From a virus (taxonomy: Duplodnaviria > Caudoviricetes), in IMG/VR virus record IMGVR_UViG_3300033475_000013, positions 1-64,000 of that record: DNA of 64,000 nucleotides. The stretch is one strand, 5' to 3'. The notes below the pieces were generated by a model. It searched no databases and was not told the origin of the DNA. It saw nothing but the letters and a program-made list of their open reading frames with translations. A program made the translations under genes and the position numbers. Below, piece by piece: positions 6,204 to 33,652 of this stretch (positions are counted from its first letter, which is position 1; every line of letters begins with the position of its first letter).

Positions 6204-6466
6204 GATTTTTGTTGGTTAATCTCTAATTCAATAGTTATCTCGTTAATATCCATCAAAGGCTCAAACCATGTTTGAGGAAAACATGCAATACGCCCATCAT
6301 TTCTCGGGCTGAATTGATGCTCGACCAATCCTATACTATTAGGAAAAGTAGATGAGTATTTTTTTACAGTGACTATATCACCATAACCAGGGCCTTTAAA
6401 TATACCTAACCACATACCGGTAGGATGAGTACACACAACTTGCTGGCCTTCTTTGAATCTTTTCAT
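6200..6466 (-). CDS. Hypothetical protein
   Basis: ORF in operon. Confidence 0.55.
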
Positions 6467-7041
6467 ACCATCTTCTCAATTAACCCACACAAAATATGAA
6501 TGATCTGAATATGTATGCCTTGAATGGGTCCGGCGTACCCTTCATGCGGCACTCTGATCTCAACATCAGCAGGACCAAGTAAATCCTGTATCGTGCCTCC
6601 ATCATTACCAGACAAAAATACGACATACATGTTCTTTTGAATAGCGGTCTGCACAGCCGCGAACACATTCTCTGAATTACCTGATGTAGAGATGGCCACC
6701 AGTACATCCTCTGGTCGTCCATGTGCCTCGATCCACCTGGAGAACACGCGATGGTAACCATAGTCATTAGCCACGCAGCTGAGATGTCCAGGATCACTTA
6801 TAGCGATAGCAGGAATTGGTTTACGGTCATCTTTATAGCGTCCAGTTAACTCGCTTGCAAAGTGCATAGCATCCGACATGGAGCCACCATTGCCGCAGGT
6901 GATGATCTTGTTACCTTTTTTGATGCTTGATGCCATCAGCATTGCGGCATTCTCTATAGCTTTGATGTTCGTAGAATCGGCGATGAACTTATTCAGCAGG
7001 CGTGCTGATGACATGAGTTCGTGTAGGATTTCTTTTTTCAT
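6463..7041 (-). CDS. gmhA: Phosphoheptose (sedoheptulose-7-phosphate) isomerase
   Basis: [37 protein letters not shown] and [12 protein letters not shown] follow the GmhA/LpcA SIS-domain signature. Confidence 0.95.
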
Positions 7042-7343
7042 GATTTTTTATTTAGAAAATCTTCAATTTGATCATTTAATATAGTAGCCCTATCAGGAAG
7101 GAATGCTAAAGATAAAGTCAATAATTCCTTTGCTTTTGATAGTTCTAATTCCAAATCCTTTTGCTTAGATTCAAGAGAGGTGAGGTCTCTTTGCATTGGA
7201 ATCACAAAATTGCTAAACATCTGTTTCAGCATAACTTTACATTCTTGTTTATCCATTGGTGTAGTCCCAGGAGCCTCAATAGAAACACCAATATGAGCGA
7301 AGATGTATTTATCCAGTGAATCTTCAAATTCTTGTTGTGTCAT
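7038..7343 (-). CDS. Hypothetical protein
   Basis: ORF in operon. Confidence 0.55.
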
Positions 7344-7675
7344 ATTCCTAATTCTTTTTTAATGTCCTTATACGTTCTGCATGGCTCAGCCTTTCTAATC
7401 TTCACCACTTTCATCAATAGCTTCAAGTCATCATAACCCATGTTTTCACTCCGATTCATCCTGCGCCGGATTTCAAGATGCCTGATCATCCGCTGAATTT
7501 TATCATGTTTCAATCCGAGAATAGCAGAGACTTCAAGTGAGGTGAAATATGTTTTCGCTATCCATCCATGCAATTGAAAGTCATACCAGAATAGTTTCTT
7601 CGCTGTCTTGACATACACAGTGTCAGAAGTTGGTGGATGCTTTTTAAGGTCATGGAGAGAATTTATTATTTGCAT
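7340..7675 (-). CDS. Hypothetical protein, possible HTH
   Basis: FTSLEVSAILGLKHDKIQRMI is HTH-like. Confidence 0.5.
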   Translation of the reverse strand: MQIINSLHDLKKHPPTSDTVYVKTAKKLFWYDFQLHGWIAKTYFTSLEVSAILGLKHDKIQRMIRHLEIRRRMNRSENMGYDDLKLLMKVVKIRKAEPCRTYKDIKKELGI

Positions 7676-8802
7676 ATCTCATTATAAGCGGATAACACTT
7701 TCTTCCATTCTAGTATGGATACTTTCTTCTTACATCCGGAATCAATAGTATCAATGACTAATTTAAAATCATATCCACTAACATTTACTGATGTTATGAC
7801 CGGATTTACAGCTTGATTTAAAGCAGCAATATCAAGCCACTTATCTTCAGGCTTATAATAAATTCCTCTCTTACTCACCTCAATTTCAAAAGTTCCACCT
7901 TCACAGCGTAGAGTAATTACTTTTGTTTGGGCTGCGGTTATTTCTTCTGGAGTGGCTAGTCGATAGCCTGATTTTGTTTCATGACATTGATCTTTGCTTC
8001 GAAATAAATTTTCTCTAACTCTCTCAATTAATTTGTAAGGACCAGCTTTATGTGATTTACCATCAAAAAATATCCAATCACCAACCTTAAACTTTTCTTC
8101 ATACACTGGCTCAAACCAGAGATCAAGAACACCAGCTTTCTTTAAAAAATCAGAAGCAGGAGAAGTAAAAGTAAAATTGTATCCTTCTGCATAATTGGTA
8201 AGTTTCCCATTTGAAAATCTTAGGATAGCACTAGCTGCTTCTTCATACTGTTTGCAATCATCCTTTAATTTGTAACCGATTATTTTCTTTTCCATAGTTT
8301 TAGGTTCTGATCCATTGAATGTTTGGGGTGAGAAATGTGAAATAATTTCTTCTTTTGTGGCCTTTCTTAACCACTTTGAAGCCTTTACACCAACGCCAGA
8401 CATCCAATGTTCTTTGAGATTATACTCATCAGTTATAGCACCATGTAATTCACTTTTGTAAAAGTGATTTTTCTTATAGGCAATTCTATAATCATTATCC
8501 ATTACAAGATTCTTATGACAATAAAATAATTCACCAGGATTTATATCATCATCATCAACCATTGCAGCTAATGCCAGAACAAGATCAGGATTGGAGGCTG
8601 ATACATCATAACGATCTCTGTAATTTCTAAGATGATCATATCCCAATGTTCCAAGTTCATCACACCAATTAGTGAGTAAATACCTATCAGTATTCGTTAT
8701 TTTACTGCCTATCACATATCCTAATTCAAGTAATTTAATAGATAATTCTTTTAATTGTTCGGTTGTGCCTTCAATGGCAAGCGGATACTTAAATTTTTTC
8801 AT
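7666..8802 (-). CDS. Hypothetical phage protein, 378 aa
   Basis: Long ORF with an internally repeated LRKATKEEI / YRLATPEEI motif. Confidence 0.7.
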   Translation of the reverse strand: MKKFKYPLAIEGTTEQLKELSIKLLELGYVIGSKITNTDRYLLTNWCDELGTLGYDHLRNYRDRYDVSASNPDLVLALAAMVDDDDINPGELFYCHKNLVMDNDYRIAYKKNHFYKSELHGAITDEYNLKEHWMSGVGVKASKWLRKATKEEIISHFSPQTFNGSEPKTMEKKIIGYKLKDDCKQYEEAASAILRFSNGKLTNYAEGYNFTFTSPASDFLKKAGVLDLWFEPVYEEKFKVGDWIFFDGKSHKAGPYKLIERVRENLFRSKDQCHETKSGYRLATPEEITAAQTKVITLRCEGGTFEIEVSKRGIYYKPEDKWLDIAALNQAVNPVITSVNVSGYDFKLVIDTIDSGCKKKVSILEWKKVLSAYNEICK

Positions 8803-8989
8803 TGTTGTTTAGTTTAAAAATAATCTACTCATCTCAAGTCCATGCTGCACCCGCAGCGTTAAATTCCAGTCATAGATCCTGCGTAGTTTCCATTCTGGCC
8901 TGTTCATCAATTCTTCGTAACTCATCTCCATGTAGAGATTCAAATAAATCCATTGAGCGTCGTAGTTGAATGAGAAGTAGGTGTCCATC

Positions 8990-9712
8990 TTAATCGCAAT
9001 GACATTGTGGAGGAAACATGTCTTCATGGAAGTAATCGGTGTCTATTTTGAATCTAGTGCCAGATAATACCAATCGCGTTATAAAAGCAATGAAATTATC
9101 TTTCATAAGACCCCTGGTAAACGGTATCTCAGCAACGGCTCCATCAATTGATATTTTCATTTTCTCAGTAGAGCCATTAGATGGTATTGATAAAAAATGA
9201 TATTTTTTTACCTGTTCTTTTTTGGTGGCGTAATCTTCATGAAGTGTGAGATCATAAGTTTTTTCGCCTGTTGAAAGATGTATTTCATACCATCCATATT
9301 GTGAATTTTTTTCCATGCGTAAATCGCAATCATCATAATACTTCACCTCGGTGAATTCAACAAATTTCTTTAGAAATTCAGAAAATAACATTTCACTTTC
9401 TTCGCGCAATAGAATTTCTTTTACTTGTGGTAAATAAGTCTGGCTCAGTGCGGTGTTGGCAATAGCATCTATCTGATCACTTAGTTTTTCATTCAACATC
9501 GTAATGATGTCGGGTAACTGAAGAGGGTAACTGAATTTTTTATCAATCAATGCTTCTTCAATTGCCTTTCGATAAGGAGAATTGTAACCACTGTAATATT
9601 CTTTCAGTGCCTCAATTGCGCCTTTCATTGCAAATTCATTAGCTTTCTCTTGCAGCACAGCAAGATCAAGAACTGGTAATATCTGGTTTGTCTCCATTAT
9701 TTTTTTATTCAA
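8990..9712 (-). CDS. Hypothetical phage protein
   Basis: 240-aa ORF. Confidence 0.7.
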   Translation of the reverse strand: MNKKIMETNQILPVLDLAVLQEKANEFAMKGAIEALKEYYSGYNSPYRKAIEEALIDKKFSYPLQLPDIITMLNEKLSDQIDAIANTALSQTYLPQVKEILLREESEMLFSEFLKKFVEFTEVKYYDDCDLRMEKNSQYGWYEIHLSTGEKTYDLTLHEDYATKKEQVKKYHFLSIPSNGSTEKMKISIDGAVAEIPFTRGLMKDNFIAFITRLVLSGTRFKIDTDYFHEDMFPPQCHCD

Positions 9713-9876
9713 ATAGTTTTAATTTCTTTACAAGAATCATAAAGACTCTTAATATCAGCGCGTTCATTTCCAGTACACTGATTGCTGTTTAGGGCAATAT
9801 GAATAGACTTTTGTAACAAATGATATTCATACTCAGTTAAGTTTAAGATTCACTTCAATGCCGTGTTCTGATAATT

Positions 9877-10170
9877 TTACTGTTGTTTGCATTCTCTTTT
9901 GGTTAGTTTTTTATGAAGATGACTAATCAATTCTTTCTGATTCTCACACCGAGATTTAAGCTTCTTCACTCTCAACTCAAGAAGTTCAACATACTTCTCA
10001 TTGATTGTCTTAAGCCTTAATTGTAATGAATCAATCTTATGCTTTAACTCTTCGATGTAAGCCTCATCCTTACCTTTATCAACTTGATTCTTTCTAAGCA
10101 AGGTATTCTCACACTCCAGCTTTTTGATTTTGAGCAAAAGGTCTTCTTTGGATATCGAATAAAGTCTCAT
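9877..10170 (-). CDS. Coiled-coil hypothetical protein
   Basis: Heptad-rich K/E/L sequence. Confidence 0.55.
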   Translation of the reverse strand: MRLYSISKEDLLLKIKKLECENTLLRKNQVDKGKDEAYIEELKHKIDSLQLRLKTINEKYVELLELRVKKLKSRCENQKELISHLHKKLTKRECKQQ

Positions 10171-10526
10171 ACCAAAAGAGCGTTAGCCTTATAATCATCA
10201 CAAAAAGGATTATTTACATCCCAGTAAAAAATCTCGTGATAGCCAGATAAAGAATATCCCATGTCACGATATAATTTACGATACAACTCATGATTTTTCT
10301 TCACTCCAAGCAGATTGAATAAAACAAGAAACTCATTTAGTAATTGACTGTCATCAATCAATTTACGAACTGATGGATTCGCCTTCCAACGGATCACATC
10401 ATCATCATCAATAATGATTTCATGTTTATGATGTGGTTCATTCCTGAGAATTTTTTTATACTCTGGAACTGAGTCAATTATTTTGGCTATCTCTTCGCTC
10501 ATTATCTTTTGGTTTAAATGATTCAC
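10167..10526 (-). CDS. Hypothetical protein
   Basis: ORF in operon. Confidence 0.6.
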   Translation of the reverse strand: MNHLNQKIMSEEIAKIIDSVPEYKKILRNEPHHKHEIIIDDDDVIRWKANPSVRKLIDDSQLLNEFLVLFNLLGVKKNHELYRKLYRDMGYSLSGYHEIFYWDVNNPFCDDYKANALLV

Positions 10527-10622
10527 TCACAACAATTGATCTGCTATCACGCAGATGAGGAGCAAGCATCACAGGTTCGTAACGCTTGCCATCCACTACT
10601 ATTCTTACTCTTCGTTTTACCA

Positions 10623-11093
10623 TTAGAATGATCGATGAAGAGTCCTCTTAAACAAATCCGTCGTGAGCACAATAGCCTGTGAATGGAAAGGCTTGCCCGC
10701 TACAATCAATGGTTTATTCAACACCGCCATCACAACCTTACCAGGCTTTGCATCACGCTTGAGTGAATTGAATTGTTTCTTCAGCTTCGGATATTTATCC
10801 GTGAATGATTTGAGCTTACCAATACCTTCTTTGGTAAGTGTCATCTTGTACTTGTTACGTACCACAGCACCACGTTTGTTCACTGATGGCATAGTCGCCT
10901 TATCTCGAAGGATATAACCTCCACCAGCCTTGTGCTCCTGCATGTTACGAACATGTACTTCCATTTCTTTTACAGGCTCTTCACGATGGTACAATCCCAT
11001 CTTACGGCGATCAGAACGTGGTATGTTCTTCACATAGTTTTTGTCTTTCTTATAAGCCTCATTGGGCTCGTTGACTGTTACTTTTCTGCTCAT
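10623..11093 (-). CDS. Basic Lys/Arg-rich hypothetical protein
   Basis: Likely start MSRKV at 11093, overlapping the upstream stop. Confidence 0.6.
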   Translation of the reverse strand: MSRKVTVNEPNEAYKKDKNYVKNIPRSDRRKMGLYHREEPVKEMEVHVRNMQEHKAGGGYILRDKATMPSVNKRGAVVRNKYKMTLTKEGIGKLKSFTDKYPKLKKQFNSLKRDAKPGKVVMAVLNKPLIVAGKPFHSQAIVLTTDLFKRTLHRSF

Positions 11094-11371
11094 GATAGTT
11101 TTACAATTAAAGAGTTTAAATATGATTTTCGATTTTGTTTTGATTCCGTTCGATACTGTGTAATCACCAGAATTAGTTTGCGGCGGATAGTGACAAGTAT
11201 AGTGAACACACCTTCCCGCTGGCGAAGCATCCATTGCCAGATTTGTGTCGGCATTGCTATCCATCCACACAGATAGCCTGCATTCACAATATGAACAAAC
11301 ATCTTGCGATGGGTATAGTGTGGTTTACCATGGCCACTTCTGCCGTACTCGGGAAAATATCTATAACTCAT
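11090..11371 (-). CDS. Hypothetical protein
   Basis: ORF with 4-nt overlaps on both sides. Confidence 0.55.
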   Translation of the reverse strand: MSYRYFPEYGRSGHGKPHYTHRKMFVHIVNAGYLCGWIAMPTQIWQWMLRQREGVFTILVTIRRKLILVITQYRTESKQNRKSYLNSLIVKLS

Positions 11372-11643
11372 TTCTTACCGCGTTTTTTGTAATCACTGAA
11401 TACATGCCAATTGTATTTTACTCGTTTGCCGTCACACCACTCGACACTGTCACGACTGATTACAGTATACCCAATACATTTTTGCTTTGTAATCTTTGAT
11501 GGATTTAGTTTGCCATTAAGGTGAACACCTGAATACCAGCCAGCACTAAAAACAAGTGCCAGAACGAAAACAATCAATAAGCCATTTACTGTGCCTCGTA
11601 AGGCATTATGGCGCTGAGCATTTTTCTCTTCGTAGTAATCCAT
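11368..11643 (-). CDS. Small membrane protein
   Basis: Single TM segment GLLIVFVLALVFSAGW. Confidence 0.55.
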   Translation of the reverse strand: MDYYEEKNAQRHNALRGTVNGLLIVFVLALVFSAGWYSGVHLNGKLNPSKITKQKCIGYTVISRDSVEWCDGKRVKYNWHVFSDYKKRGKK

Positions 11644-11650
11644 AAATCTG

Positions 11651-12232
11651 TTATTTTAATCTTTCCGACAAATCAGCGTTTTTATACTCAACAAATTTTA
11701 AGTGTTTGTCAATAGTAGACCGACTAAGCCCTGTTTGTTTAATGATCTCGGAGATACGCGCACCATTGCTACGCAACTCTTCAACCTGGCTTAGCTTATC
11801 TGCATCCGTAAACCTTCTCCCAAGCTTGCGCCCCTGGCTCTTCACATAAGCAAGCCCTGAGATCGTACGCTCTGAAATCAAGTCCCGCTCAAACTCAGCA
11901 ATAGAGGCCATGATATTGAATATTAGTTTGCCCTGGGAAGTAGTGGTATTAAAGTTATCGTTGAGTGAAATGAGATCGACCTGCTTCTCTTTAAAATTGT
12001 TCACAAGTGAAATGAGATGCTGTAAAGATCTTCCTAATCTATCAAGTTTATGAATGACTACAGTATCACCTTCCTTCAGTGTTGCAATCATTTTATCAAG
12101 TTCCGGCCGACTGGCTTTTGTGCCTGTTATTTTTTCAGTGAAGATAATCTCACAGCCATACTTCTGAAGGTCGGACACTTGCCTGCCTAAATTCTGATCT
12201 TGCGTTGAGACGCGGGCGTAACCTATTTTCAT
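11651..12232 (-). CDS. Small serine recombinase (resolvase/invertase family)
   Basis: MKIGYARVST with catalytic Ser, VIHKLDRLGRS, AEFERDLISERT, C-terminal HTH. Confidence 0.95.
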   Translation of the reverse strand: MKIGYARVSTQDQNLGRQVSDLQKYGCEIIFTEKITGTKASRPELDKMIATLKEGDTVVIHKLDRLGRSLQHLISLVNNFKEKQVDLISLNDNFNTTTSQGKLIFNIMASIAEFERDLISERTISGLAYVKSQGRKLGRRFTDADKLSQVEELRSNGARISEIIKQTGLSRSTIDKHLKFVEYKNADLSERLK

Positions 12233-12500
12233 TTCTTTGATTTTAATTTGCGTTCAAAATCATCCCAAAGGGATTTATAAACAATCATTGGTATCACATA
12301 GCCCACGACAACAATAAATGCTATAATCAATACCGTTGATACTACTGTGATAATTATCTCTTTAGGTGTCATTGTTGTATTCTTAAATTTAGTTTGCTTT
12401 TTGTTAAAAGATTGGAGGCTCGTTTCCCTTTCTTATCTGCTATACAAAGGCAAGTGTTACGTACCACATTTTCCTTCTTTACAGAATCATACTCGACCAC

Positions 12501-12878
12501 TTACGTTTTCGCGGGAGCACTCCAATTTTTAATTTCTATTTTAACCAATCTAAACAGCAACTGAGCCCAATCCTTTTTGGTAATGTCCAGGTAACAGCCG
12601 GAAAGCTTAAGCATGTAAAGAAACTTAATGACTACCTCATCATCTTGCACATAAAACTTAATCGACTGGCTTTCGGTCTTACTGTAACCGTCAAACTTGT
12701 ACAAGTAGAATTCTCCGTGGTCATCTTTCATCTTGACATTAATAATATCACCGTACTGGTCAGGTGCCATCAGCTTTTCAAAATTAGTTTGCCGTTGCTG
12801 CAAAGCTTCTATTGCAAACTGGCGAACTTGGCGCCGCTCTGCTTTAGAGGAAGACGGATTTATAAAGGTTGTTTTCAT
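12501..12878 (-). CDS. Hypothetical protein
   Basis: ORF in operon. Confidence 0.55.
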   Translation of the reverse strand: MKTTFINPSSSKAERRQVRQFAIEALQQRQTNFEKLMAPDQYGDIINVKMKDDHGEFYLYKFDGYSKTESQSIKFYVQDDEVVIKFLYMLKLSGCYLDITKKDWAQLLFRLVKIEIKNWSAPAKT

Positions 12879-13864
12879 GCTCTGATTCCAGTTATTTCAA
12901 AAAACTTATCTGAGTCAAAACCAGGCAAAGAAGTAAATACAGATTTCTTTTTATCCGTTAAATTACCCCAAAGATTTGCCCATGCTTCTTTGATTGGAAT
13001 AGTTTTTAAATAACCTTCTGTAGTTTCGTGCTTAGGATTTTTTTCTTTTTCTTCAGCACTCATTAATGAAGATGGAACCCAAATTGTAAAGTCAAGATTA
13101 GACATGATTTGGCAAGCTTCGTGATTCTCCCAATCACGCACATTTATATCAGTCAATTTATCAAATAAAATCAATTTAGGGTTTGATTCGGTGCAGAATG
13201 CGCCCGAATTCCTGTAGCCCGAATTACTGTCGCCCGAATTCCTGTCGCCCGAATTCCAGTTGCCCGAATTCCAGTTGCCCGAATTCCTGTTGCCCGAATT
13301 CCTGTCGCCCGAATTACTGTCGCCCGAATTCCAGTTGCCCGAATTCCAGTTGCCCGAATTCCTGTTGCCCGAATTACTGTTGCCCGAATTCCAGTTGCCC
13401 GAATTCCAGTTGCCCGAATTACTGTCGCCCGAATTACTGTCGCCCGAATTCCAGTTGCCCGAATTCCTGTCGCCCGAATTCCTGTTGCCCGAATTACTGT
13501 TGCCCGAATTACTGTCGCCCGAATTCCAGTTGCCCGAATTAGAATGACCGGTATTGTCCTTTCCTTCATTGGCTAAAAATAAAACTTCAGACCACTCAAT
13601 GATGCGAATGATATGAAGCTTATTAGTACAAACTTTAGAATCTTCATCGTGTGTTTGTGTTTCTCCTAACGCTTCAACTTCGCAGACAATATTTTTTGGA
13701 TCAAAATCGTAATACGAAAAACAATCAGAAGCTTTCAAACAAAAATGTAAGCCTGAACGACAAATTGTTATTGGAAGAGGCACTTCAAAAGTCTTGCCGA
13801 CTTCGTATTTCATATTGTTTTGTTTCGCGGTAAAATCTGGATTGAATACTTTATAACCTTTCAT
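12875..13864 (-). CDS. Phage pentapeptide-repeat protein ([ND][WRS]NSG repeats)
   Basis: N-terminal GYKVF...YEVGK...GLHFC domain; 23 xxNSG repeats; C-terminal domain. Confidence 0.85.
   Translation of the reverse strand: MKGYKVFNPDFTAKQNNMKYEVGKTFEVPLPITICRSGLHFCLKASDCFSYYDFDPKNIVCEVEALGETQTHDEDSKVCTNKLHIIRIIEWSEVLFLANEGKDNTGHSNSGNWNSGDSNSGNSNSGNRNSGDRNSGNWNSGDSNSGDSNSGNWNSGNWNSGNSNSGNRNSGNWNSGNWNSGDSNSGDRNSGNRNSGNWNSGNWNSGDRNSGDSNSGYRNSGAFCTESNPKLILFDKLTDINVRDWENHEACQIMSNLDFTIWVPSSLMSAEEKEKNPKHETTEGYLKTIPIKEAWANLWGNLTDKKKSVFTSLPGFDSDKFFEITGIRA
13202..13546 (-). repeat. 23 x 15-bp coding tandem repeat
   Basis: Unit (A/G)AC-(TGG/AGG/AGT)-AAT-TCG-GGC on the minus strand; 345 bp equals 23 units. 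Confidence 0.95.
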
Positions 13865-14168: not shown

Positions 14169-14172
14169 GGCC

Positions 14173-18766: not shown

Positions 18767-18842
18767 CAGGTATTGGGGAAGTCCGGTCGTTCCCGCCACA
18801 CTTGGAATGTGGAGCTCGTTGGTTCAAATCCAGCATGCCTGA
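18767..18842 (+). tRNA. tRNA-Pro(TGG)
   Basis: Acceptor CAGGTAT/ATGCCTG; anticodon arm CCACA-CTTGGAA-TGTGG; T arm GTTGG-TTCAAAT-CCAGC. Confidence 0.9.
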
Positions 18843-18849
18843 CTTTTAT

Positions 18850-18922
18850 TGCCGGATGGTGGAATTGGCAACACATCAGACTTTGATTCTGAAAATTACA
18901 GGTTCGAGACCTGTTCCGGCAA
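18850..18922 (+). tRNA. tRNA-Gln(TTG)
   Basis: Acceptor TGCCGGA/TCCGGCA; TCAGA-CTTTGAT-TCTGA; ACAGG-TTCGAGA-CCTGT. Confidence 0.9.
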
Positions 18923-18924
18923 CT

Positions 18925-18998
18925 GTGATCGTGGGCAAGTGGCTTAAGCCGCGAGATTGTGGTTCTCGTATTCGCCGGTTCGAATCCGGTCGATCACC
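18925..18998 (+). tRNA. tRNA-His(GTG)
   Basis: Acceptor GTGATCG/CGATCAC; CGAGA-TTGTGGT-TCTCG; C73 discriminator. Confidence 0.9.
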
Positions 18999-19008
18999 AA
19001 AAATTAAT

Positions 19009-19088
19009 GCCCCTGTGACATATGCAAACTGGCACAGCTGACGGTTTTAGACACCGTGTTTTTGAGAGTTCGATTCTCTCCAGGGGTA
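19009..19088 (+). tRNA. tRNA-Leu(TAG), atypical (expanded D region, short variable loop)
   Basis: Acceptor GCCCCTG/CAGGGGT; ACGGT-TTTAGAC-ACCGT; GAGAG-TTCGATT-CTCTC. Confidence 0.75.
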
Positions 19089-19092
19089 CAAT

Positions 19093-19166
19093 GGCTGCAT
19101 GGCGAAACTGGCAGACGCGTCAGACTTAAAATCTGAATTTTACGAGTTCGAATCTCGTTGCGGCTA
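19093..19166 (+). tRNA. tRNA-Leu(TAA), short variable loop
   Basis: Acceptor GGCTGCA/TGCGGCT; TCAGA-CTTAAAA-TCTGA; 5-nt variable loop; ACGAG-TTCGAAT-CTCGT. Confidence 0.85.
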
Positions 19167-20210
19167 CAAAAATTTCTCGATCAATGTTCTGAAAGCGAGT
19201 TCGGCTTGCTGTTCAACGACGGCATTTCCTGCCATGCGAAGAAGGTCTTCTCTAAAGTTGTACCCATTAATTGCATAACCCAGGCTGGATTCAAGACGAG
19301 GCTCTTCGAATTCGAATTGATTTGGTCCTTGTCCTGCTGGAAAAAGACTTGTCTGGGCAATTGATCGCACCGATTCCTCCCATCGCTTCTTTGCATTTCC
19401 ATGCCGGCCGTGTCCTTCCAGTCGAGACTGGAAGGAGTTGTCCATTGTCTGACTTGAACTGGTAATGCTGTTCCTCCTTGTTGAAATTTTGTTTTTCTGT
19501 TGGTTGAACTTGATAACGATGTCGTCCACTTTCTCACTGTCTCCGCCAGATATAACGGAACGGTGTTCTGGTTGGCATTTGACTTCCGATAATCCAAGCA
19601 CTTCTGCAAGGTCTCCTCGTCTCTTACTCTGTTCAGAGCAGTAAGTGTCGGCCACGGCAAGGATGAAGAGACGTTTTCTAAGATGTGGCGTGCCCACTTG
19701 CTCCGCAGCGAATATGTCCGCTTCAACTTTGTAACCAAGGCTTGATATTCGTTCTCTGACTTCCTGGTATCCGATATTGAGGTGGTTTGCGACGTTTTCG
19801 AAGAAACAGAGAACAGGTCTAACTGCGTCGATTCCATGTTCAAAGAAGGGGAAGAGATGTCGTGGATCGGCGACTCCGTTCTGTAGCCCGGCTTGTGAAA
19901 ATGGTTGACAAGGATATCCTCCAGTGAGGATGTGTATTTTTCGGTAAAACTGTTCGTACGGGAATGTTTTAAGATCAGTCCAGATAGGCACTGGAGCCAC
20001 CATACCTTGTTCCATTTTCGCTGCCACATTGTAGGCGGCAAAGGATTCGATTTCCACAATAGCGGCATATTGGAGAATTCTAGCTTGATACATTTTTTCT
20101 CCTTGATGTGGGTACCGTAGTGCTGCAATTCCTCGTTCCAGTCCTCGATCAAGTCCACCTTGTCCGTGGCAAAGGCTGAGTGTAGCGAGTGTTTTTTCGG
20201 GATTATCCAC
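19164..20210 (-). CDS. C5 cytosine DNA methyltransferase (alpha polypeptide)
   Basis: Motif I LCHGQGGLD; motif IV GYPCQPFS; motif VI FENV; motif VIII PHLRKRLF; motif X LRMAGNAVV. Confidence 0.92.
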   Translation of the reverse strand: MDNPEKTLATLSLCHGQGGLDRGLERGIAALRYPHQGEKMYQARILQYAAIVEIESFAAYNVAAKMEQGMVAPVPIWTDLKTFPYEQFYRKIHILTGGYPCQPFSQAGLQNGVADPRHLFPFFEHGIDAVRPVLCFFENVANHLNIGYQEVRERISSLGYKVEADIFAAEQVGTPHLRKRLFILAVADTYCSEQSKRRGDLAEVLGLSEVKCQPEHRSVISGGDSEKVDDIVIKFNQQKNKISTRRNSITSSSQTMDNSFQSRLEGHGRHGNAKKRWEESVRSIAQTSLFPAGQGPNQFEFEEPRLESSLGYAINGYNFREDLLRMAGNAVVEQQAELAFRTLIEKFL

Positions 20211-26562: not shown

Positions 26563-26564
26563 AG

Positions 26565-26774: not shown

Positions 26775-26779
26775 GGCGA

Positions 26780-28127: not shown

Positions 28128-28313
28128 ATGGATGAATTCATCAAATTAGCTGAAGAGATGCGTGATGCGCAGAAGAATTACTTCAAAGCCAGACGCAATC
28201 ATGATGACGAAAAATCTCAATACTATCTGGCCTTATCAAAAAGACTGGAAGGTGAGTTTGATGCTTTCATTTTGAAGTATAAGAAGGATAAAGAGCAACC
28301 TAAATTGTTTTGA
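28128..28313 (+). CDS. Small hypothetical protein
   Basis: MRDAQKNYFK...SKRLE. Confidence 0.6.
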   Translation: MDEFIKLAEEMRDAQKNYFKARRNHDDEKSQYYLALSKRLEGEFDAFILKYKKDKEQPKLF

Positions 28314-28316
28314 TGT

Positions 28317-28556
28317 ATGGAATTAATTGAAGGAATGGGCAATGAAACGATGCCGAGTGTTATAAAAGATCCATTCAATAAAAACAAAATTGAAATGGTT
28401 GCCATTTACCTAATGAAAAGTATGTTTGATGACAAGTATAATGCTTCCGGTAAAATAAAGTTTAAAAATGGAAATACCGTTGGAGAGCAGGAATTTACAG
28501 GAAAATCAATTGATGACATTATCATTCAAATGAAAGCAGTTCTTAAAGATTTGTAA
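28317..28556 (+). CDS. Hypothetical protein
   Basis: ORF in operon. Confidence 0.55.
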   Translation: MELIEGMGNETMPSVIKDPFNKNKIEMVAIYLMKSMFDDKYNASGKIKFKNGNTVGEQEFTGKSIDDIIIQMKAVLKDL

Positions 28557-28568
28557 ACCAAAAATAAT

Positions 28569-29045
28569 ATGGAATTAAACGAGAACATTCTAAAAGAAAT
28601 CAATAAGCAGTTGCCTCAATTGGCCGCTACTGAATTAGTGACATTTATTGAAGATGCAAAAGGAACAAAAAAACTCCTTGAAGTAACTCAGCAAAATGTA
28701 AAAACAATGCAGGCGGAACTTAGTGCACTTCGCGAAAAGGAATCTAAGTTTAATAATGCGACTAAAATGATGGAAGATGCTGAAAAACTTTCTAAAACAG
28801 CAGACGCACGGCAGGCTGATATGGAGTTGACACTAACAAAAGAAAAGCTTTCACAGCGTGATTTTGTGATTCAGAAATTCGAAGGTTTCCTGTCACTGCT
28901 TGTTAAAAATCCAAGAGCCATTGAAATGATTTCCGGAAGTGAGAACTTCTCTAATTCAACTTATTATGACGGATCAAGAAATGTTAGAGAACACCTCCAT
29001 TCTTCAACTTCATCACAATCAGAAAAGATTGAAACAAAAGACTAA
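28569..29045 (+). CDS. Coiled-coil hypothetical protein
   Basis: Heptad pattern. Confidence 0.6.
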   Translation: MELNENILKEINKQLPQLAATELVTFIEDAKGTKKLLEVTQQNVKTMQAELSALREKESKFNNATKMMEDAEKLSKTADARQADMELTLTKEKLSQRDFVIQKFEGFLSLLVKNPRAIEMISGSENFSNSTYYDGSRNVREHLHSSTSSQSEKIETKD

Positions 29046-29263
29046 TGCAACTCGAAAAAACTTTCACCGACAGCAAAACAGTATCTGGTATCCGCTACAA
29101 TCCAGAAACCAAAGTTTTATCCATCACCTACGTAACGGGCAAGACTTACGACTATGCAGATGTGCCTGAACGTGTTGTTGATCATGCTATGAACGCTGAG
29201 TCTATCGGAAAATTCGTCAACACCTACATCAAAGAAGAATATAAATACAAACTTGTTAATTAA
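29045..29263 (+). CDS. KTSC domain protein
   Basis: SKTVSGIRYNPETKVLSITY..GKTYDY..VP......AESIGKFVNTYIK. Confidence 0.9.
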   Translation: MQLEKTFTDSKTVSGIRYNPETKVLSITYVTGKTYDYADVPERVVDHAMNAESIGKFVNTYIKEEYKYKLVN

Positions 29264-29269
29264 TTTGTT

Positions 29270-30496
29270 ATGGCAGAAGAAACAACATCACTCATAAAGC
29301 TTGAACCTATCTTAAAACAAATGCAGGAGGTAGTGCCTCGCATGCAAAAAGGAAGTGCTAATAGTGTTGCTGCCATGCGGCAGATCACCGAAATCACTTC
29401 GGATGAAGATCTTCAAAATGCTACTGGCGTACTTGTCGCTGTCAGAAATACATTCGATGCCATACAGAAATTACGCAAGCCTATCACGGAGGAATTTGAT
29501 AAGTTAAAATCTGAATTGATGGAGTTTGAGAAACTGGTTAGCCAGGACTCAAAAGACAATGAAGTAGCACGTATCCGAAATCTTATTGGCGCCTATAACC
29601 AGGCTAAGCTGGACAAGAAACGTGAAGAAGAACTCAAGGCCCAAAAACAAAAGGACAAAGAGAATCATAAAGTTGATATTTCATCTCGACTGAAAAAGAA
29701 ATTGGCCGATCTGTTAATTGAACGTGTGCGCCAAGTTCATGAAGGAAGTAAAAAACATTTTGATGTTCCGCTTGAGCAATTTGATGAACGTGCCGCTCAG
29801 TTTAAAAAGTTCAAGCCCGTTCTTAAAAAAGAGCAGTATGATTCATGCTTCATCACCGACTACAATAAAAGCATAGTATCAGAAGAAGAGTACATTCAAC
29901 TTGTTGCCGATCTTCAGGTAGAAGAAACGTATGCCAAATGGAGCGAACTTGTGCTGGAGCAAATTGTACCGAAGGTTAATGAGTGGATTGGACGTATTCC
30001 TGAGTTAAAACAAAAACTTGTTGATCTGAAAAACGCTACAGATGAAGAAAGCAGGCTAAAGATTGAGAAAGAACAGAAAGAAAAGGCTGAGCAGGAAGAG
30101 CGCGAGAGTAAGGCAGAGATTGAGAACATGCAGAAAGCCTCTGATGAAAATATTCAGCGTGAAGCTGCCGTTGATAAATTACAGAATGAATTCCGGGAGC
30201 AGGCTATTACGCAGCAACTGGAAGATGCAGGTCCGACTAAATTGATTTTGAAGTTCAAGGATGATAAGCCTGTGAAAGCTATCTGTGAGATCATCTATCA
30301 TAATTTCAAACATGATAAATTCCCTAGCATCATAAAACTAGATAAGGACAAGAAGCCTAAGGTTGATGAGTATGGTTTCCCGGTATACGTGGATTGGTTG
30401 GACTTACTGGTTAGCTTCTTTGTTAAGTATGGCGACGTTAACATAAATGGTGTAGAATTGAAAGAGGTCACCAAAACTATTGTGAGAGCAAAATAA
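29270..30496 (+). CDS. Long coiled-coil protein of the recombination module
   Basis: RKPIT..FD motif and extended K/E coiled coil. Confidence 0.65.
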   Translation: MAEETTSLIKLEPILKQMQEVVPRMQKGSANSVAAMRQITEITSDEDLQNATGVLVAVRNTFDAIQKLRKPITEEFDKLKSELMEFEKLVSQDSKDNEVARIRNLIGAYNQAKLDKKREEELKAQKQKDKENHKVDISSRLKKKLADLLIERVRQVHEGSKKHFDVPLEQFDERAAQFKKFKPVLKKEQYDSCFITDYNKSIVSEEEYIQLVADLQVEETYAKWSELVLEQIVPKVNEWIGRIPELKQKLVDLKNATDEESRLKIEKEQKEKAEQEERESKAEIENMQKASDENIQREAAVDKLQNEFREQAITQQLEDAGPTKLILKFKDDKPVKAICEIIYHNFKHDKFPSIIKLDKDKKPKVDEYGFPVYVDWLDLLVSFFVKYGDVNINGVELKEVTKTIVRAK

Positions 30497-30539
30497 TCAT
30501 GTACTTATTCTTCGACACCGTTAAAGAAGTGATTTTAAA

Positions 30540-31133
30540 ATGAGTTACTTCGATCATCATTACGTCTCGAATTCTGATCTAAAGAAACTACATCATAAGC
30601 TGGCAGGAAGAGTTGATCAACCGAATCTTCAGGAGATTTATGATGCTGGTACACTCAACCATAATGCGCTACTGGAGCCATATAAATGTGACAAAACTCA
30701 TCCTGGTTATCCACTGGCAAAGACAATGGCCGAAACTGTACTAAGAGATGAATTGTGTAGAAAGATAATTATGCATCATGACTTCAGACGCGAGCATGAG
30801 TGGTATAGAAGCAACAGATGGGGACTTAAAGGCGTTCGGTGTAAGACTGATGGAGATAGTAAGGAATTATCAACGATCTTTGAATACAAGGGGCTGGCGA
30901 TTACTACTGAGAAAGCATTTGATGCCGCTATTCTTCATCACGATTATGATGCTTCGTGTTACTATTATTTAAATGTTGTTGGCTATAAATACTATTTGAT
31001 TGCTGGCGTATCGAAAGAGAAACCGAAGATGCTTTTCAAACGGCTATACACTAGAGACCATGATGTTTATTCCAGCGGAGGCATTAAGATTGAGACAGAA
31101 ATTAGTGAGTGGAAAAATTTTGGATTTGTATAA
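30540..31133 (+). CDS. PD-(D/E)xK exonuclease-like protein (RecE/DUF3799-like)
   Basis: VSNSDLK, GTLNH, RCKTDG...FEYKG, YDASCYYY. Confidence 0.7.
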   Translation: MSYFDHHYVSNSDLKKLHHKLAGRVDQPNLQEIYDAGTLNHNALLEPYKCDKTHPGYPLAKTMAETVLRDELCRKIIMHHDFRREHEWYRSNRWGLKGVRCKTDGDSKELSTIFEYKGLAITTEKAFDAAILHHDYDASCYYYLNVVGYKYYLIAGVSKEKPKMLFKRLYTRDHDVYSSGGIKIETEISEWKNFGFV

Positions 31134-31145
31134 AAATTAAAAACT

Positions 31146-31436
31146 ATGTTGACCGGAAAAATTGATTGTTCTAAGATTGAAAAAGCCAGATTGTTTAATG
31201 GTAAAGATGGCGCGAAGTATCTTGATATTATTTTGATTCCTACGCCTAATGACAAGCATGGTAATGACTACATGATTGTACAGTCCATTACAAAAGAGGA
31301 ACGTGCTGCCGGGCAGAAAGGTAAAATACTTGGCAATGCTAAAGAATTAGGACAGCGAAGTAATGCTCCTCAGCAAGGAAATGATGGATGGGGAAGTGCT
31401 CCATCTAATAGTGATATTGACGGACTTCCTTTTTAA
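31146..31436 (+). CDS. Single-stranded DNA-binding protein (Bacteroidota phage type)
   Basis: KIDCSKI...GAKYLD...GKILGNAK; C-terminal DGLPF. Confidence 0.7.
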   Translation: MLTGKIDCSKIEKARLFNGKDGAKYLDIILIPTPNDKHGNDYMIVQSITKEERAAGQKGKILGNAKELGQRSNAPQQGNDGWGSAPSNSDIDGLPF

Positions 31437-31439
31437 GAT

Positions 31440-31856
31440 ATGATAGTTGTAGTCGGAGGCTGTTTTGATGTTTTGCACGTCGGGCATATAAACATGCTTA
31501 TGTTTTGTCGCCAGATAGTAGGACAAAATGGAACTGTTATTGTCAGCATTGATAGTGATGATAAAATCGCTAAAGATAAAGGTGCGGACAGACCTATCTT
31601 CAATGTCTTTGAACGCGAAGATGCACTTATGGCACTTACAGCTTACGGAAATAAAGTAGTTAATGAAGTGCTTCGTCATCATGATAATGAAGAGTTACTT
31701 CAAATCATTGAGAAAATAAGGCCTGACTACATCGTGTCTTGTGATGAATATCGAGGACGTGTGGTCGGTGCTGAGTATGCTGAAGTTATTTACTTCAAGA
31801 AAGATGCACGATTTTCTTCTACTAAAATAATTGAGGCATGTCGAAGAAAAGAATAA
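31440..31856 (+). CDS. hldE: Heptose-1-phosphate adenylyltransferase (HldE/RfaE domain II)
   Basis: GGCFDVLHVGH (HxGH), DSDDKIAKDKGADRPI, IRPDYIV..DEY..RVVGAE, FSSTKII. Confidence 0.85.
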   Translation: MIVVVGGCFDVLHVGHINMLMFCRQIVGQNGTVIVSIDSDDKIAKDKGADRPIFNVFEREDALMALTAYGNKVVNEVLRHHDNEELLQIIEKIRPDYIVSCDEYRGRVVGAEYAEVIYFKKDARFSSTKIIEACRRKE

Positions 31857-31995
31857 GATGCACAATTATTAATAATGAATTTGCTTGTGATCTTGGTAAT
31901 GGTTGGATTTATTGGTTTGTGATGAATGGAAATCATTATTACGCAAAACCACTTTTTGGCATATTCGATCCTTTACCTAAAGACTGGAATAATTT

Positions 31996-32874
31996 ATGAC
32001 TAACGAAGAAATACTACAGCGTGCAAAAACTTTGAAGATCGCCATCATCGGTGATCTGATCGAAGACCGATACATCATTGGTGACGTGCATCGAGTGTCA
32101 CCTGAAGCTCCAGTAGTAGTAGTTTCAAAAACATCAGAGACTACATATGCGGGCGGTGCAGGTAATGTGTTTATGAACCTGGTTAATCTTGGAGTTGATG
32201 CATACCTTTTCACCCGAGGTAATCCACGTGCTGATATTCTTTGTGATAGCATCTTCATTCACCCTGGTAGAACTCCAATTAAGACACGGATCATGTCTAA
32301 CAATCATCATCTGCTTAGAGTGGATGATGAAGAGAGTAATCCGGATATAGTAGAGTATGATGATCTGACGTGGAAGGAAGATTTTGAAAAATTATTTCCT
32401 TCACTTGATGCCATTATATTCTCTGATTATCATAAAGGAACTATCAGTCCATCAATATCGAACACCATTATTTCACTGTGTAATGAATTTAACATACCGG
32501 TGTTTGTGGATGCGAAGCGTGATTTTGATAAGTACAAGCATGCATTGATGATTAAATGTAACAAGCATGAGGCCAAAGATATTGATGTTGAGAAACTAAG
32601 GAGTGATTTGAAGGCCACATATTTTGTGGTGACTACTGGAGAAACAGGTATGACTGCTTTTTATTATGGCAATATATGGCTTACACTAGCTGTTGATGTC
32701 GGTGTAGTAGATGTGTGTGGTGCTGGAGACATTGTAATTGCTATAGCAGCGATGGCTTTCGCTGCCGGAATGAACATGATACCAGCACTTGATCTATCGA
32801 ATAAAGCAGCAGGTGAGAGTTGTAAGCATGCTGGTGTGTATGCGTTGACGAAAGAAGACTTTTTAAAATTATGA
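31996..32874 (+). CDS. hldE: Heptose-7-phosphate kinase (HldE/RfaE domain I, PfkB family)
   Basis: IGDLIEDRY..GDVHRVSPEAPV, GGAGNV, SDYHKG, VDVCGAGD. Confidence 0.92.
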   Translation: MTNEEILQRAKTLKIAIIGDLIEDRYIIGDVHRVSPEAPVVVVSKTSETTYAGGAGNVFMNLVNLGVDAYLFTRGNPRADILCDSIFIHPGRTPIKTRIMSNNHHLLRVDDEESNPDIVEYDDLTWKEDFEKLFPSLDAIIFSDYHKGTISPSISNTIISLCNEFNIPVFVDAKRDFDKYKHALMIKCNKHEAKDIDVEKLRSDLKATYFVVTTGETGMTAFYYGNIWLTLAVDVGVVDVCGAGDIVIAIAAMAFAAGMNMIPALDLSNKAAGESCKHAGVYALTKEDFLKL

Positions 32875-33116
32875 GTTTGTATTCAGTTGTGCAGGATATG
32901 TCATCAGGCGAGACAATTGAAATATCTGATTATGTCTATTCTGATGTCTTTATTTCAAAAGATCCTTACGAATGGTTTAAAAATTCTTTACTTGTTTTTG
33001 CTGGTCATAGACCAAACTTAACAACAAAAGAAAAAGAAGAATTATTCTGCCGTCAGACTAATTGCATAATAAAGCATGATATAGTGACAATGAAAATTTT
33101 CATTACAAAAAAATAA
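32871..33116 (+). CDS. Hypothetical protein
   Basis: ORF in operon. Confidence 0.5.
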   Translation: MSLYSVVQDMSSGETIEISDYVYSDVFISKDPYEWFKNSLLVFAGHRPNLTTKEKEELFCRQTNCIIKHDIVTMKIFITKK

Positions 33117-33118
33117 TT

Positions 33119-33652
33119 ATGGAAACAGTTACAAACTTATCACCATCTCATAAATTAAGACCTGCATTATGTCTTGATTTTGATGGCACTATTAGAAGAA
33201 GTCCTAATGGTAATACGTTTATTAAAAACTATCAGGATATTGAATTGATTCCTGGGATGGAAGAAAAAATATGGAGTTTCAGAAATAAAGGATATTTAAT
33301 TCTTGGCATCTCCAATCAAGCAGGCGTTGCTCATGGTTTTAAATTACCAATGGAGATTGAATTAGAACTTCAAACAACTCTTAATTTATTTAAAGAAAAT
33401 CCATTCCACATAGTGAAGCATTGTTACCATGATGGTAAAGGTAAAATTGAACCATACAATCATCGTTCATTATTACGGAAGCCAGATATAGGCATGTTAG
33501 CCGTAATGGAGCATGATGCGTGGAATGAAGGGTTTGTAATTGATTGGGACAATTCTCTTTTTGTTGGAGATCGTCCAGAAGATCAAGAATGTGCTCGTAG
33601 AGCAGGAATGCCATTTTATCATGTTGATGATTTCAAAGGATTAGATGATTAA
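33119..33652 (+). CDS. gmhB: D,D-heptose-1,7-bisphosphate phosphatase (HAD IIIA)
   Basis: LDFDGTI, GISNQAGVAHG, RKPDIGML, FVGDRPEDQECARRAG. Confidence 0.8.
   Translation: METVTNLSPSHKLRPALCLDFDGTIRRSPNGNTFIKNYQDIELIPGMEEKIWSFRNKGYLILGISNQAGVAHGFKLPMEIELELQTTLNLFKENPFHIVKHCYHDGKGKIEPYNHRSLLRKPDIGMLAVMEHDAWNEGFVIDWDNSLFVGDRPEDQECARRAGMPFYHVDDFKGLDD

Follow-up and report, generated by a model that had tools for sequence, protein, structure and literature searches.

The bacterial ADP-heptose pathway relies on separate GmhA, HldA, GmhB and HldC enzymes in Burkholderia and Neisseria, and on a fused HldE in E. coli. Phage versions of these genes have long been known, from P-SSM2 in 2005 to at least 590 IMG/VR contigs. 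Lytic cyanomyoviruses, among them P-SSM2, S-SSM7 and S-CAM1, are annotated with a trio of kinase, nucleotidyltransferase and phosphoheptose isomerase whose function is hypothesised; a surface role against superinfection or sticking to debris was proposed for these "LPS genes" in P-SSM2 (Sullivan et al. 2005; PMC1079782). On the consuming side, TibC and AAH are bacterial autotransporter heptosyltransferases (BAHT; PDB 4rap, 4rb4), and TibC has a compact, four-stranded N-lobe (PMC4358343). The phage described here carries the same trio as the cyanomyoviruses, yet its proteins share only 28-32% identity with theirs, and it belongs to a different phage lineage with a different host phylum. Its novelty is an unusual transferase module: its DUF5672-GT9 fusion occurs in none of the cyanomyoviruses, some of which have a stand-alone DUF5672 only.

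The window analysed, 64,000 nucleotides, covers positions 1 to 64,000 of an uncultured phage record that represents a CheckV-complete virus genome of 77,943 bp. The contig encodes TerL, portal and a crAss-type muzzle domain and is therefore phage and not host DNA; the host phylum is probably Bacteroidota. The record ends overlap by 127 bp and cut through the gene of a 463-aa fusion glycosyltransferase, whose ORF joins both ends, and the glycosyltransferase module wraps around this junction.

We consider it probable that the phage supplies its own activated heptose to a phage-specific cytoplasmic glycosylation module, and a phage-borne route from sedoheptulose-7-P to NDP-heptose is very likely. 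The four ORFs named in an earlier note lie exactly where it placed them. GmhA (6463..7041, minus strand) would isomerise host sedoheptulose-7-P, and an HldA-type kinase (31996..32874, plus strand) would phosphorylate the product at C1. Dephosphorylation at C7 could then fall to a BT0820-type HAD phosphatase (34042..34434, plus strand), to a HAD-IIIA enzyme (33119..33652, plus strand) or to both, before an HldC-type transferase (31440..31856, plus strand) adenylylates the sugar. The donor would be consumed by two soluble GT9-type enzymes, a 262-aa protein and the GT9 half of the fusion; further sugars may be added by the GT-A domain of the fusion and by a GT2-like protein, and two methyltransferases may O-methylate the glycan. 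This reading is favoured because of the family motifs, the adjacency or fusion of kinase and transferase, the proximity of GmhA to the module, kinase enrichment, the GT9 folds and the lack of an epimerase. The analysis shows which genes these are, how their products fold, which motifs are conserved, and how the genes are linked and co-occur in different phages; the individual reactions, the choice of nucleotide and the acceptor are inferred.

As in the bacterial pathway, the phage set combines a SIS isomerase, a PfkB kinase with an RxSPEAPV motif, an HxGH nucleotidyltransferase and a HAD phosphatase, whereas its scores fall under equivalog cut-offs, it lacks HldD, its genes are dispersed in the phage genome and its phosphatase step may use a non-orthologous BT0820-type HAD. 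Two identities are firm, those of GmhA and of the HldA-type kinase. GmhA, a sedoheptulose-7-phosphate isomerase of 192 aa, scores 253 bits against NF001628 (cut-off 265) and 203 against TIGR00441 (cut-off 209), matches Pfam SIS_2 (E 3e-24), carries GNGGS..HFASEL, STSGNS and a C-terminal QGIHIQIIH, and is 57% identical to the syntenic gene in the complete relative G001. The kinase matches TIGR02198 (rfaE_dom_I) with 211 bits (E 2e-62, cut-off 345), and R33, S35 and PEAPV36-40 of its RxSPEAPV motif, together with GGxGNV and DxCGxGD, are invariant across 35 relatives. The 138-aa nucleotidyltransferase has TIGR02199 (rfaE_dom_II) as its best family match (62.7 bits, E 3e-17, cut-off 181; TagD scores 38.9), and Burkholderia HldC (5x9q) is among its PDB sequence matches. 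The top PDB match by summed score is an ethanolamine-phosphate cytidylyltransferase, and TagD also matches, so that the enzyme's nucleotide, and even its sugar-phosphate, can only be presumed. An HldC-type identity is nevertheless supported by its HVGH and RFSSTKII motifs, by a conserved kinase neighbour, present here and in G001, G006 and G007, and by at least 60 viral contigs in which a homologous sequence forms the C-terminal half of a kinase-transferase fusion ORF. In the HMM searches, three of the four pathway enzymes fall below curated equivalog cut-offs, which counts against the heptose supply line. A six-frame Epimerase search found no HldD, as the earlier note had reported, and the D,D-heptose is therefore expected, the form that TibC uses as ADP-D,D-heptose.

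The putative consumers cluster around the record ends. The fusion gene runs on the plus strand from genome position 76940 across the overlap to window positions 3..515, which encode the C-terminal 170 aa; the intact protein is P0124. It joins a DUF5672 GT-A domain (E 2e-19) to a compact GT9 domain, its AF2 model has a pLDDT of 91.7, and its orthologs pass the Pfam GT9 cut-off. The GT9 domain contains a catalytic-base-type Asp within an invariant GD motif, as well as a DSG donor motif. A second, small GT9 enzyme of 262 aa lies at genome positions 74651-75439; an unbiased search against 48,161 chains gave only GT9-clan members as its top matches (Z 14.5-17.2, next fold 10.8). GT9 is not an exclusively heptose-specific family in CAZy. 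Downstream follow a class I SAM methyltransferase (512..1033, plus strand; Methyltransf_23, Methyltransf_11), which is encoded after the fusion in 16 of the 42 related loci, and a CmcI/rhamnosyl O-methyltransferase-like protein (1247..1903, plus strand; Methyltransf_24 E 6e-11, RMNT_CmcI E 5e-8) with a weak NF045824 match and 69% identity to its G001 counterpart. A 310-aa candidate glycosyltransferase of GT-A fold (1900..2832, plus strand) has no Pfam match; its Atlas model matches GT2 clusters (TM 0.71-0.76), and 29 of the 42 loci have its gene no more than 6 kb from that of the fusion. GmhA is encoded 3.6 kb from this module, 0.9 kb in G001 and 1.7 kb in G007. The "separate" GmhA locus of the earlier note is thus close to the presumed consumers.

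Comparison across phages suggests how supply and module are related. The heptose genes occupy syntenic positions in three complete relatives (38-62% identity), and the phage kinases form one deep group (87 rows including this one) that branches from cellular Bacteroidota kinases with 100% support, in agreement with the long residence in phages suggested earlier. GT9-type consumers are found alongside heptose genes in related phages, as had been anticipated, and another phage subgroup has its kinase and nucleotidyltransferase genes no more than 5 kb from the GT9 pair. Of the 42 IMG/VR records that encode the fusion, 12 also carry the kinase, against at least 590 contigs of 2.9 million IMG/VR-wide. 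The transferase module is common to many uncultured phages, while the heptose genes occur in only some; of the eight complete phage genomes that encode the fusion, five carry neither kinase nor GmhA, so the transferases need no phage-made donor, and another donor is possible in principle. The pathway genes thus look like an optional donor-supply booster for an older and more widespread module. That module is all but confined to phages: a scan of 185,579 species genomes gave 448 matching loci, and of the best 80 only one contains the full-length fusion gene, on a contig of phage size (78 kb); the module was not found in cellular glycan loci.

As for the acceptor, a protein, and then most likely a virion protein, can be put forward tentatively. 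The fusion enzyme might O-heptosylate Ser or Thr of a phage structural or other protein in the cytoplasm, in the manner of TibC and AAH, while the GT-A domain, the GT2-like protein and the methyltransferases extend and cap the glycan. TibC is the top structural match of the fusion GT9 (Foldseek E 4e-10; VIA Z 21.7, ahead of WaaF at 19.8 and WaaC at 18.5; rmsd 2.7 over 257 residues, spanning TibC 96-388) and is also nearest in a profile search of PDB sequences (E 1e-3). The modelled N-lobe has only four strands, as in TibC, and C418, C425, H427, C437 and C446, invariant in 40 of 40 sequences, sit at the C-lobe insertion site of the TibC iron finger (C339, C342, C358, C370). The lead over LPS heptosyltransferases is, however, only about 2 Z units, sequence identity is 15-16%, and the nearest NCBIfam model, TibC/Aah TIGR04414, gives 16.8 bits where 200 is the cut-off. 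Cysteine spacing also differs, with a His in the phage cluster, the donor motif reads IDSGPxQ, the canonical GT9 form, and not LPSGLSW as in TibC, and a GT-A domain stands where TibC has an N-terminal beta-barrel. That GT-A domain matches A64R, the capsid-glycosylating enzyme of PBCV-1 (Z 12.2). Mycobacteriophages offer a parallel, as their virion glycosylation cassettes combine glycosyltransferases with an O-methyltransferase and act on capsid and tail proteins. The idea of mycobacteriophage virion glycosylation is mentioned in PMC11256854. Both systems use soluble phage glycosyltransferases and methyltransferases encoded beside structural or packaging genes, and in 23 of 42 loci the present module is found shortly before TerL; the mycobacteriophage cassettes differ in enzyme families and host and have no known dedicated sugar-nucleotide pathway. 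The near-restriction of the module to phages also favours a protein acceptor. Against a protein acceptor, the structural proteins scanned include none with an obvious Ser/Thr-rich tail, and no acceptor protein was identified.

It is somewhat less likely that the acceptor is a host envelope glycolipid, with methylated heptose-containing residues added to the LPS core or a similar molecule, which could block superinfection or keep progeny from sticking to debris, as hypothesised for cyanophages (PMC1079782). LPS core heptosylation is the canonical GT9 role, the nearest structures to the small GT9 are 3tov, WaaC and WaaF, and the fusion enzyme retains the canonical donor motif. The sole host lead points the same way. 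It is a contig of phage size, related to this phage, within a Chitinophagaceae MAG; this MAG encodes a kinase of its own, and Chitinophagaceae genomes mostly have the kinase (53 of 61) and GmhA (57 of 61), so heptose-bearing acceptors probably exist there. For this lead, the earlier rationale that a heptose-poor Bacteroidota host obliges the phage to bring the route is not supported. However, each GT9 domain falls short of WaaC and WaaF by about 60-80 residues, chiefly in the acceptor-binding N-lobe. No transmembrane segment is predicted in any cluster protein, all module proteins are predicted to be soluble, and the module holds no membrane protein or polymerase; the ORFs scanned also include no flippase or ligase. 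The absence of the module from the cellular glycan loci compared above weighs against this acceptor too, and apart from a small resolvase the scanned ORFs showed no integrase, so lysogenic conversion is not obvious.

Within the proposed supply line, the phosphatase is the weakest member. The HAD-IIIA protein, an uncertain GmhB candidate with DFDGT, SNQAG, RKP and GDRPED motifs, passes the HAD-IIIA model (51.9 bits, cut-off 44.6) but reaches 53.6 bits against a GmhB equivalog cut-off of 178, and the only Pfam family whose cut-off it passes is PNK3P (43.6 bits, cut-off 22). Its best PDB match is E. coli GmhB (2gmw, 37.8 bits), followed by a PNKP phosphatase (29.6), but both Zn-loop cysteines of the E. 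coli enzyme are missing from it in the alignment. Its closest phage match is annotated as a polynucleotide kinase/phosphatase, its neighbours are recombination and replication genes, and the gene was not found in the complete syntenic relatives G001, G006 and G007. Judged by sequence, it appears to be a generic phosphatase, ambiguous between GmhB and a polynucleotide 3'-phosphatase. Hence, of the "complete" ADP-heptose pathway proposed earlier, the NDP-heptose route holds as very likely, but completeness is weakly supported, as it depends on this ambiguous gene. The phosphatase conserved in this lineage is the BT0820-type HAD (ORF 33817-34434, start likely at 34042), which scores 68 bits against NF046079, matches PDB 2obb (E 9e-15) and has a DFDST motif. 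Its gene lies beside the kinase in G001, G006 and G007, only 17 nt away in G007, and none of the five complete records without kinase yielded a copy; the enzyme may act as an alternative heptose-bisphosphate phosphatase. It is unlikely that the four genes do not form one route, with the HAD-IIIA protein serving nucleic-acid end repair and/or the nucleotidyltransferase activating glycerol-3-P, phosphoethanolamine or a similar substrate: the PNK3P score, phage relative, gene setting and cytidylyltransferase and TagD matches speak for it, but the HAD-IIIA protein has a GmhB/HisB-type GDxxxD motif IV besides its GmhB match, rfaE_dom_II is the best family for a nucleotidyltransferase that adjoins or is fused with heptose kinases across many viruses, and the BT0820-type HAD or host GmhB could close the route even if HAD-IIIA acts elsewhere. 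In other viral contigs the kinase and transferase are mostly fused in an HldE-like form, and a GmhB-like gene lies within 10 kb in 17 of 80.

Four open reading frames had been read in an earlier note as a complete ADP-heptose pathway split between two loci, and all four are present at exactly the positions it named. Profile searches give best-family or motif support to GmhA, the kinase and the nucleotidyltransferase, although all three stay below their equivalog cut-offs. GmhA (6463-7041, -) scores 253.4 bits on NF001628 (cut-off 265) and 202.6 bits on TIGR00441 (cut-off 209.45), both just short of the threshold, with DiaA as the next-best family at 140.8 bits against 352. It matches Pfam SIS_2 (E 3e-24), and its translation carries HFASEL, STSGNS and QGIHIQIIH, giving the active-site Glu (HFAxEL) and the C-terminal His of the SIS fold. 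The HldA-type kinase (HldE domain I; 31996-32874, +) matches TIGR02198 rfaE_dom_I with 211 bits (E 2e-62), below the equivalog cut-off of 345; cellular Chitinophagaceae kinases score 243-378 bits, and the phage kinases form a divergent group. The window's kinase has the PfkB fold, with both the RxSPEAPV motif specific to RfaE and the catalytic GAGD motif present. Across 35 sequences R33, S35, P36-V40, G53-G54, G56-V58, D239..G242, G244 and D245 are invariant, the GGxGNV and GxGD motif residues among them, and A55 is nearly so.

The nucleotidyltransferase (HldC or HldE domain II; 31440-31856, +; 138 aa) has TIGR02199 rfaE_dom_II as its best family match, at 62.7 bits against a cut-off of 181.5. 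Its PDB neighbours include ethanolamine-phosphate cytidylyltransferase (ECT), Burkholderia HldC and TagD, and it contains HVGH and RFSSTKII, corresponding to the HxGH and ISTT-type motifs. The gene adjoins the kinase in four genomes, namely that of the window and the three complete syntenic relatives G001, G006 and G007, and more than 60 other viral contigs encode fused kinase-transferase proteins with a C-terminal half homologous to it. The protein can be accepted as a putative HldC-like enzyme, an assignment weaker than those of GmhA and the kinase.

The phosphatase is the weak link of the pathway. The "GmhB" candidate, a HAD-IIIA protein at 33119-33652 (+), has GmhB/HisB-type motifs: aligned to E. 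coli GmhB, it shows DFDGT, SNQAG, RKP and GDRPED for DxDGT, T/SNQ, RKP and GDxxxD. E. coli GmhB is its first PDB match at 37.8 bits, with PNKP 3'-phosphatases close behind at 29.6 bits. On the GmhB model NF006506 it reaches 53.6 bits against a cut-off of 178, on histidinol-phosphatase 55.7, and PNK3P is the sole Pfam model above cut-off (43.6 bits). Its closest GenBank phage relative is annotated as a polynucleotide kinase/phosphatase, and the protein does not separate clearly from PNKP/HisB phosphatases. G001 has no counterpart of this gene or of the small ORF preceding it, and six-frame HAD-IIIA searches of G006 and G007, both of which carry GmhA, kinase and transferase, are negative.

A second phosphatase, a small HAD protein of the BT0820 family (34042-34434, +, within an ORF opening at 33817), lies beside the kinase in all four genomes, 17 nt from it in G007, and was found in none of the five complete relatives without a kinase. 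Because the BT0820-type gene is common to the four kinase genomes and the HAD-IIIA gene is absent from the relatives, this non-orthologous enzyme may be what normally dephosphorylates heptose-bisphosphate in the lineage, and the HAD-IIIA gene may be a later addition of uncertain role; both suggestions come from co-occurrence.

The window covers bases 1-64000 of a 77,943-bp IMG/VR record that is rated complete by CheckV. Its genes include those for a large terminase, a portal, a capsid-type protein and a crAss-type muzzle domain, which confirms that the DNA is phage rather than host. Host DNA or a prophage is rejected on the grounds of circular closure, CheckV completeness and a full virion module. 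The terminase is a distant relative (about 25%) of Cellulophaga and Flavobacterium podovirus terminases, and 14 kb compared with GenBank phages by megablast gives no match. The record ends share a 127-bp "direct terminal repeat" (window 1-127 = genome 77817-77943). Since an intact, highly conserved 463-aa ORF (genome 76940 to window 515) runs across this repeat, the ends reflect an overlap left by the assembly of a genome that is circular or permuted, not a physical end; 127 is a common maximum k-mer. Genes at the ends of the linear record are split for its readers, and the window alone shows just the tail of this ORF.

The ORF encodes P0124, a fusion glycosyltransferase of 463 aa whose family comprises about 1,600 proteins with 48-83% identity. 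Residues 1-195 match DUF5672 (E 2e-19), a domain for which a literature search found no functional study, and adopt a GT6/GT8-like GT-A fold (Z 12-13) in a confident AlphaFold model (pLDDT 91.7). Residues 197-463 form a compact GT-B domain in that model. Its best structure match is TibC (Foldseek E 4e-10; VIA Z 21.7, rmsd 2.7 over 257 residues), with WaaF (Z 19.8), a Veillonella GT9 (Z 19.8) and WaaC (Z 18.5) as further VIA matches, and TibC also comes first when the family profile is compared with PDB sequences (E 1e-3). TibC is an iron-containing protein O-heptosyltransferase. The GT9 hallmarks of the fusion are an invariant GD (D210) where the catalytic base of WaaC and TibC sits and an IDSG donor motif. 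Orthologs of the fusion pass the cut-off of the Pfam GT9 model (PF01075); the copy in the window reaches 11-13 bits, and both GT9-like proteins of this genome fall under the cut-off, so their GT9 assignment draws on folds and orthologs.

The fusion and TibC share a four-stranded N-lobe (PMC4358343). At the site of TibC's iron-finger insertion the fusion has an invariant C418/C425/H427/C437/C446 cluster, which places four Cys and one His in a position equivalent to the Cys4 iron finger but with different spacing. The two also differ in that the N-terminal beta-barrel of TibC is replaced by the GT-A domain (residues 1-195), and in that the fusion has a canonical donor motif, with P300 and W305 of TibC aligning to D and Q. 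The best NCBIfam model for the fusion is the Aah/TibC equivalog TIGR04414, which it matches with 16.8 bits where the cut-off is 200; given this score and the missing beta-barrel, membership of the BAHT family of autotransporter protein heptosyltransferases is rejected. By its structure model, the fusion is a divergent GT9-clan enzyme with a predicted TibC-like architecture. None of the GenBank phages carries it.

The rest of the transferase module surrounds this gene. The small GT9-clan enzyme (genome 74651-75439, 262 aa) has no Pfam match, and its fold is assigned from a structure model (pLDDT 92.4): when 48,161 chains were searched without bias, the five best matches belonged to the GT9 clan (Z 14.5-17.2), and the next fold scored 10.8. 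It retains G14-D15 and has NQS as a variant of the DSG donor motif. The fusion gene is followed downstream by genes for a class I methyltransferase (MT1, 512-1033), a CmcI/rhamnosyl-O-methyltransferase-like enzyme (MT2, 1247-1903) and a GT2-like protein of 310 aa, which in its Atlas model resembles GT2 clusters with TM 0.71-0.76. No membrane segments are predicted in the module proteins. The small GT9 gene lies between genes for two proteins that have Cpn10/GroES-like domains at the C-terminus and are kept in several relatives; these genes are at genome 73431-74243 (-; locus coordinates L002:9431-10243; E 4e-12) and 75883-76374 (+; L002:11883-12374; E 3e-16). After the latter comes a protein that has a YopX domain and a DnaJ-type CxxCxGxG match (genome 76371-76943).

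Heptose genes and module are also linked in relatives. G001, a complete 77.3-kb IMG/VR phage, is syntenic with the window genome over 60 genes, and GmhA, transferase, kinase, both GT9-like genes, both methyltransferases and the 310-aa gene are 57-70% identical between the two. GmhA lies 3.6 kb from the module in the window genome, 0.9 kb in G001, where the neighbour is the GT2-like gene, and 1.7 kb in G007. Window 2858-6463 is extra DNA without a counterpart in G001; it holds a VIPR Cas7-like gene (4457-5026) and a gene for a DUF6549 protein (5143-5829), and looks like an insertion between the module and GmhA.

In the IMG/VR loci where the fusion gene is full-length (n=42), the small GT9 gene lies within 6 kb of it in 40, the GT2-like gene in 29, TerL in 23, MT1 in 16, the nucleotidyltransferase in nine and the kinase in eight. 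Over whole records the kinase appears in 12 of the 42, and among complete genomes in only three of eight, the same three to which GmhA is restricted. The co-occurrence with GT9 genes in related phages that the earlier note raised is thus borne out. The transferase module is a widespread core and the heptose genes an optional supplement, yet a strongly enriched one: IMG/VR as a whole contains kinase relatives on at least about 590 of 2.9 million contigs. A scan with the single kinase protein returned nothing until an alignment served as the query. Matching contig sizes suggest that kinase and fusion gene may also occur together on many 77-85-kb Logan/JGI contigs. A second phage subgroup (IMG/VR loci L105, L108-L112, L115 and L128) has a shorter kinase of about 250 aa; its kinase and nucleotidyltransferase lie on the opposite strand, no more than 5 kb upstream of the two GT9 genes, and TerL lies 3 kb downstream of these. 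Two of its genomes, G027 and G043, have a 97-aa HAD-like ORF directly beside the kinase.

An unrooted tree of the 120 best kinase homologs and one host kinase places every row from phage-size contigs in one group (n=87), which a long, fully supported branch splits from 34 cellular-type rows, including all rows named Bacteroidota. This topology is consistent with long residence in phages and agrees with the long-term domestication proposed earlier. Among 185,579 species-representative genomes, the best 80 of 448 loci matching the fusion gene include one full-length copy, on a 78.3-kb contig of a Chitinophagaceae MAG with the same module; the other 79 are stand-alone DUF5672 domains, mostly from Proteobacteria. 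The binning of this one relative is the sole lead to a host and points weakly to Chitinophagaceae. On its own chromosome the MAG encodes a heptose kinase (346 bits) and GmhA, and of 61 genomes sampled from the family 53 have a kinase scoring at least 243 bits and 57 have GmhA. This lead contradicts the proposal that a heptose-poor host is the reason for the phage to carry the route.

In the proposed route, GmhA would convert sedoheptulose-7-P to heptose-7-P, the kinase would form heptose-1,7-bisphosphate and a HAD phosphatase would release heptose-1-P. No HldD epimerase is found, as already remarked in the earlier note. After a presumed adenylylation, the two GT9 enzymes would transfer the heptose, and the glycan could then be extended by the GT-A and GT2 domains and O-methylated by the methyltransferases. 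The TibC-like architecture, truncated acceptor lobes, phage-only distribution, soluble enzymes and packaging/structural neighbours lead us to lean slightly to a protein as acceptor, probably a virion component. Modification of a host glycolipid instead of a protein is nearly as likely. A look for Ser/Thr-rich tails on structural proteins as possible acceptors was not diagnostic: such a composition is confined to the fibre-like protein of 1804 aa and a few ORFs that are not structural. DNA glycosylation is set aside, with no hydroxymethylase or TET-type gene in the subset of ORFs scanned. Returning to the protein acceptor, the full proposal is that a large and entirely uncultured Bacteroidota-type phage lineage heptosylates its own virion proteins through a phage-exclusive bifunctional enzyme, in which a GT-A domain is fused to a TibC-like metal-finger GT9 domain, some members, the phage of the window among them, having a private ADP-D,D-heptose pathway in which a non-orthologous BT0820-type phosphatase replaces GmhB; taken as a whole, this scheme is speculative and less likely than not.

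Heptose genes in phages are not new. Annotations of GenBank phages such as P-SSM2, S-SSM7, S-CAM1 and others include the kinase, transferase and isomerase, and cyanophage heptose genes were discussed as "LPS genes" in 2005 (PMC1079782). The pathway finding is real but ordinary as first stated; the linked transferase module is what gives it value. After twenty years in which phage-borne heptose genes have been catalogued without a demonstrated purpose, supply genes tied physically and phylogenetically to a defined, highly conserved, phage-only module make the question of why phages make ADP-heptose testable. Virion heptosylation, if true, would be the first protein heptosylation system beyond autotransporter adhesins and would yield the first heptose-decorated phage particle. 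A virion protein acceptor would carry protein heptosylation past bacterial adhesins, represent a new kind of phage particle glycosylation, and place the BT0820 HAD family and DUF5672 in a functional context for the first time. Should the acceptor be host LPS, the system would offer a tractable model for the cyanophage "LPS gene" hypothesis.

Several other features of the genome deserve mention. Searches of Pfam, PDB sequences and PHROG give nothing useful for the 378-aa (7666-8802), 408-aa (29270-30496) and 310-aa proteins. The 378-aa ORF belongs with ORFs of 111 and 101 aa (window 7038-8802, -) that overlap head-to-tail with GmhA in an operon-like arrangement; the 378-aa and 111-aa ORFs also lie upstream of GmhA in G001 (34% and 43% identity), and neither has a match in Pfam, NCBIfam or the PDB. 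A 329-aa protein (window 12875-13864, -) combines DUF7666 with pentapeptide repeats, predicted to form a beta-helix; pentapeptide-repeat beta-helix proteins can be DNA mimics. A DUF1643 protein (window 36125-36628, +; E 1e-33) is encoded at the junction of replication and late genes, and four clustered tRNA genes (Pro-TGG, Gln-TTG, His-GTG and Leu-TAA) occupy window 18767-19167 (+).
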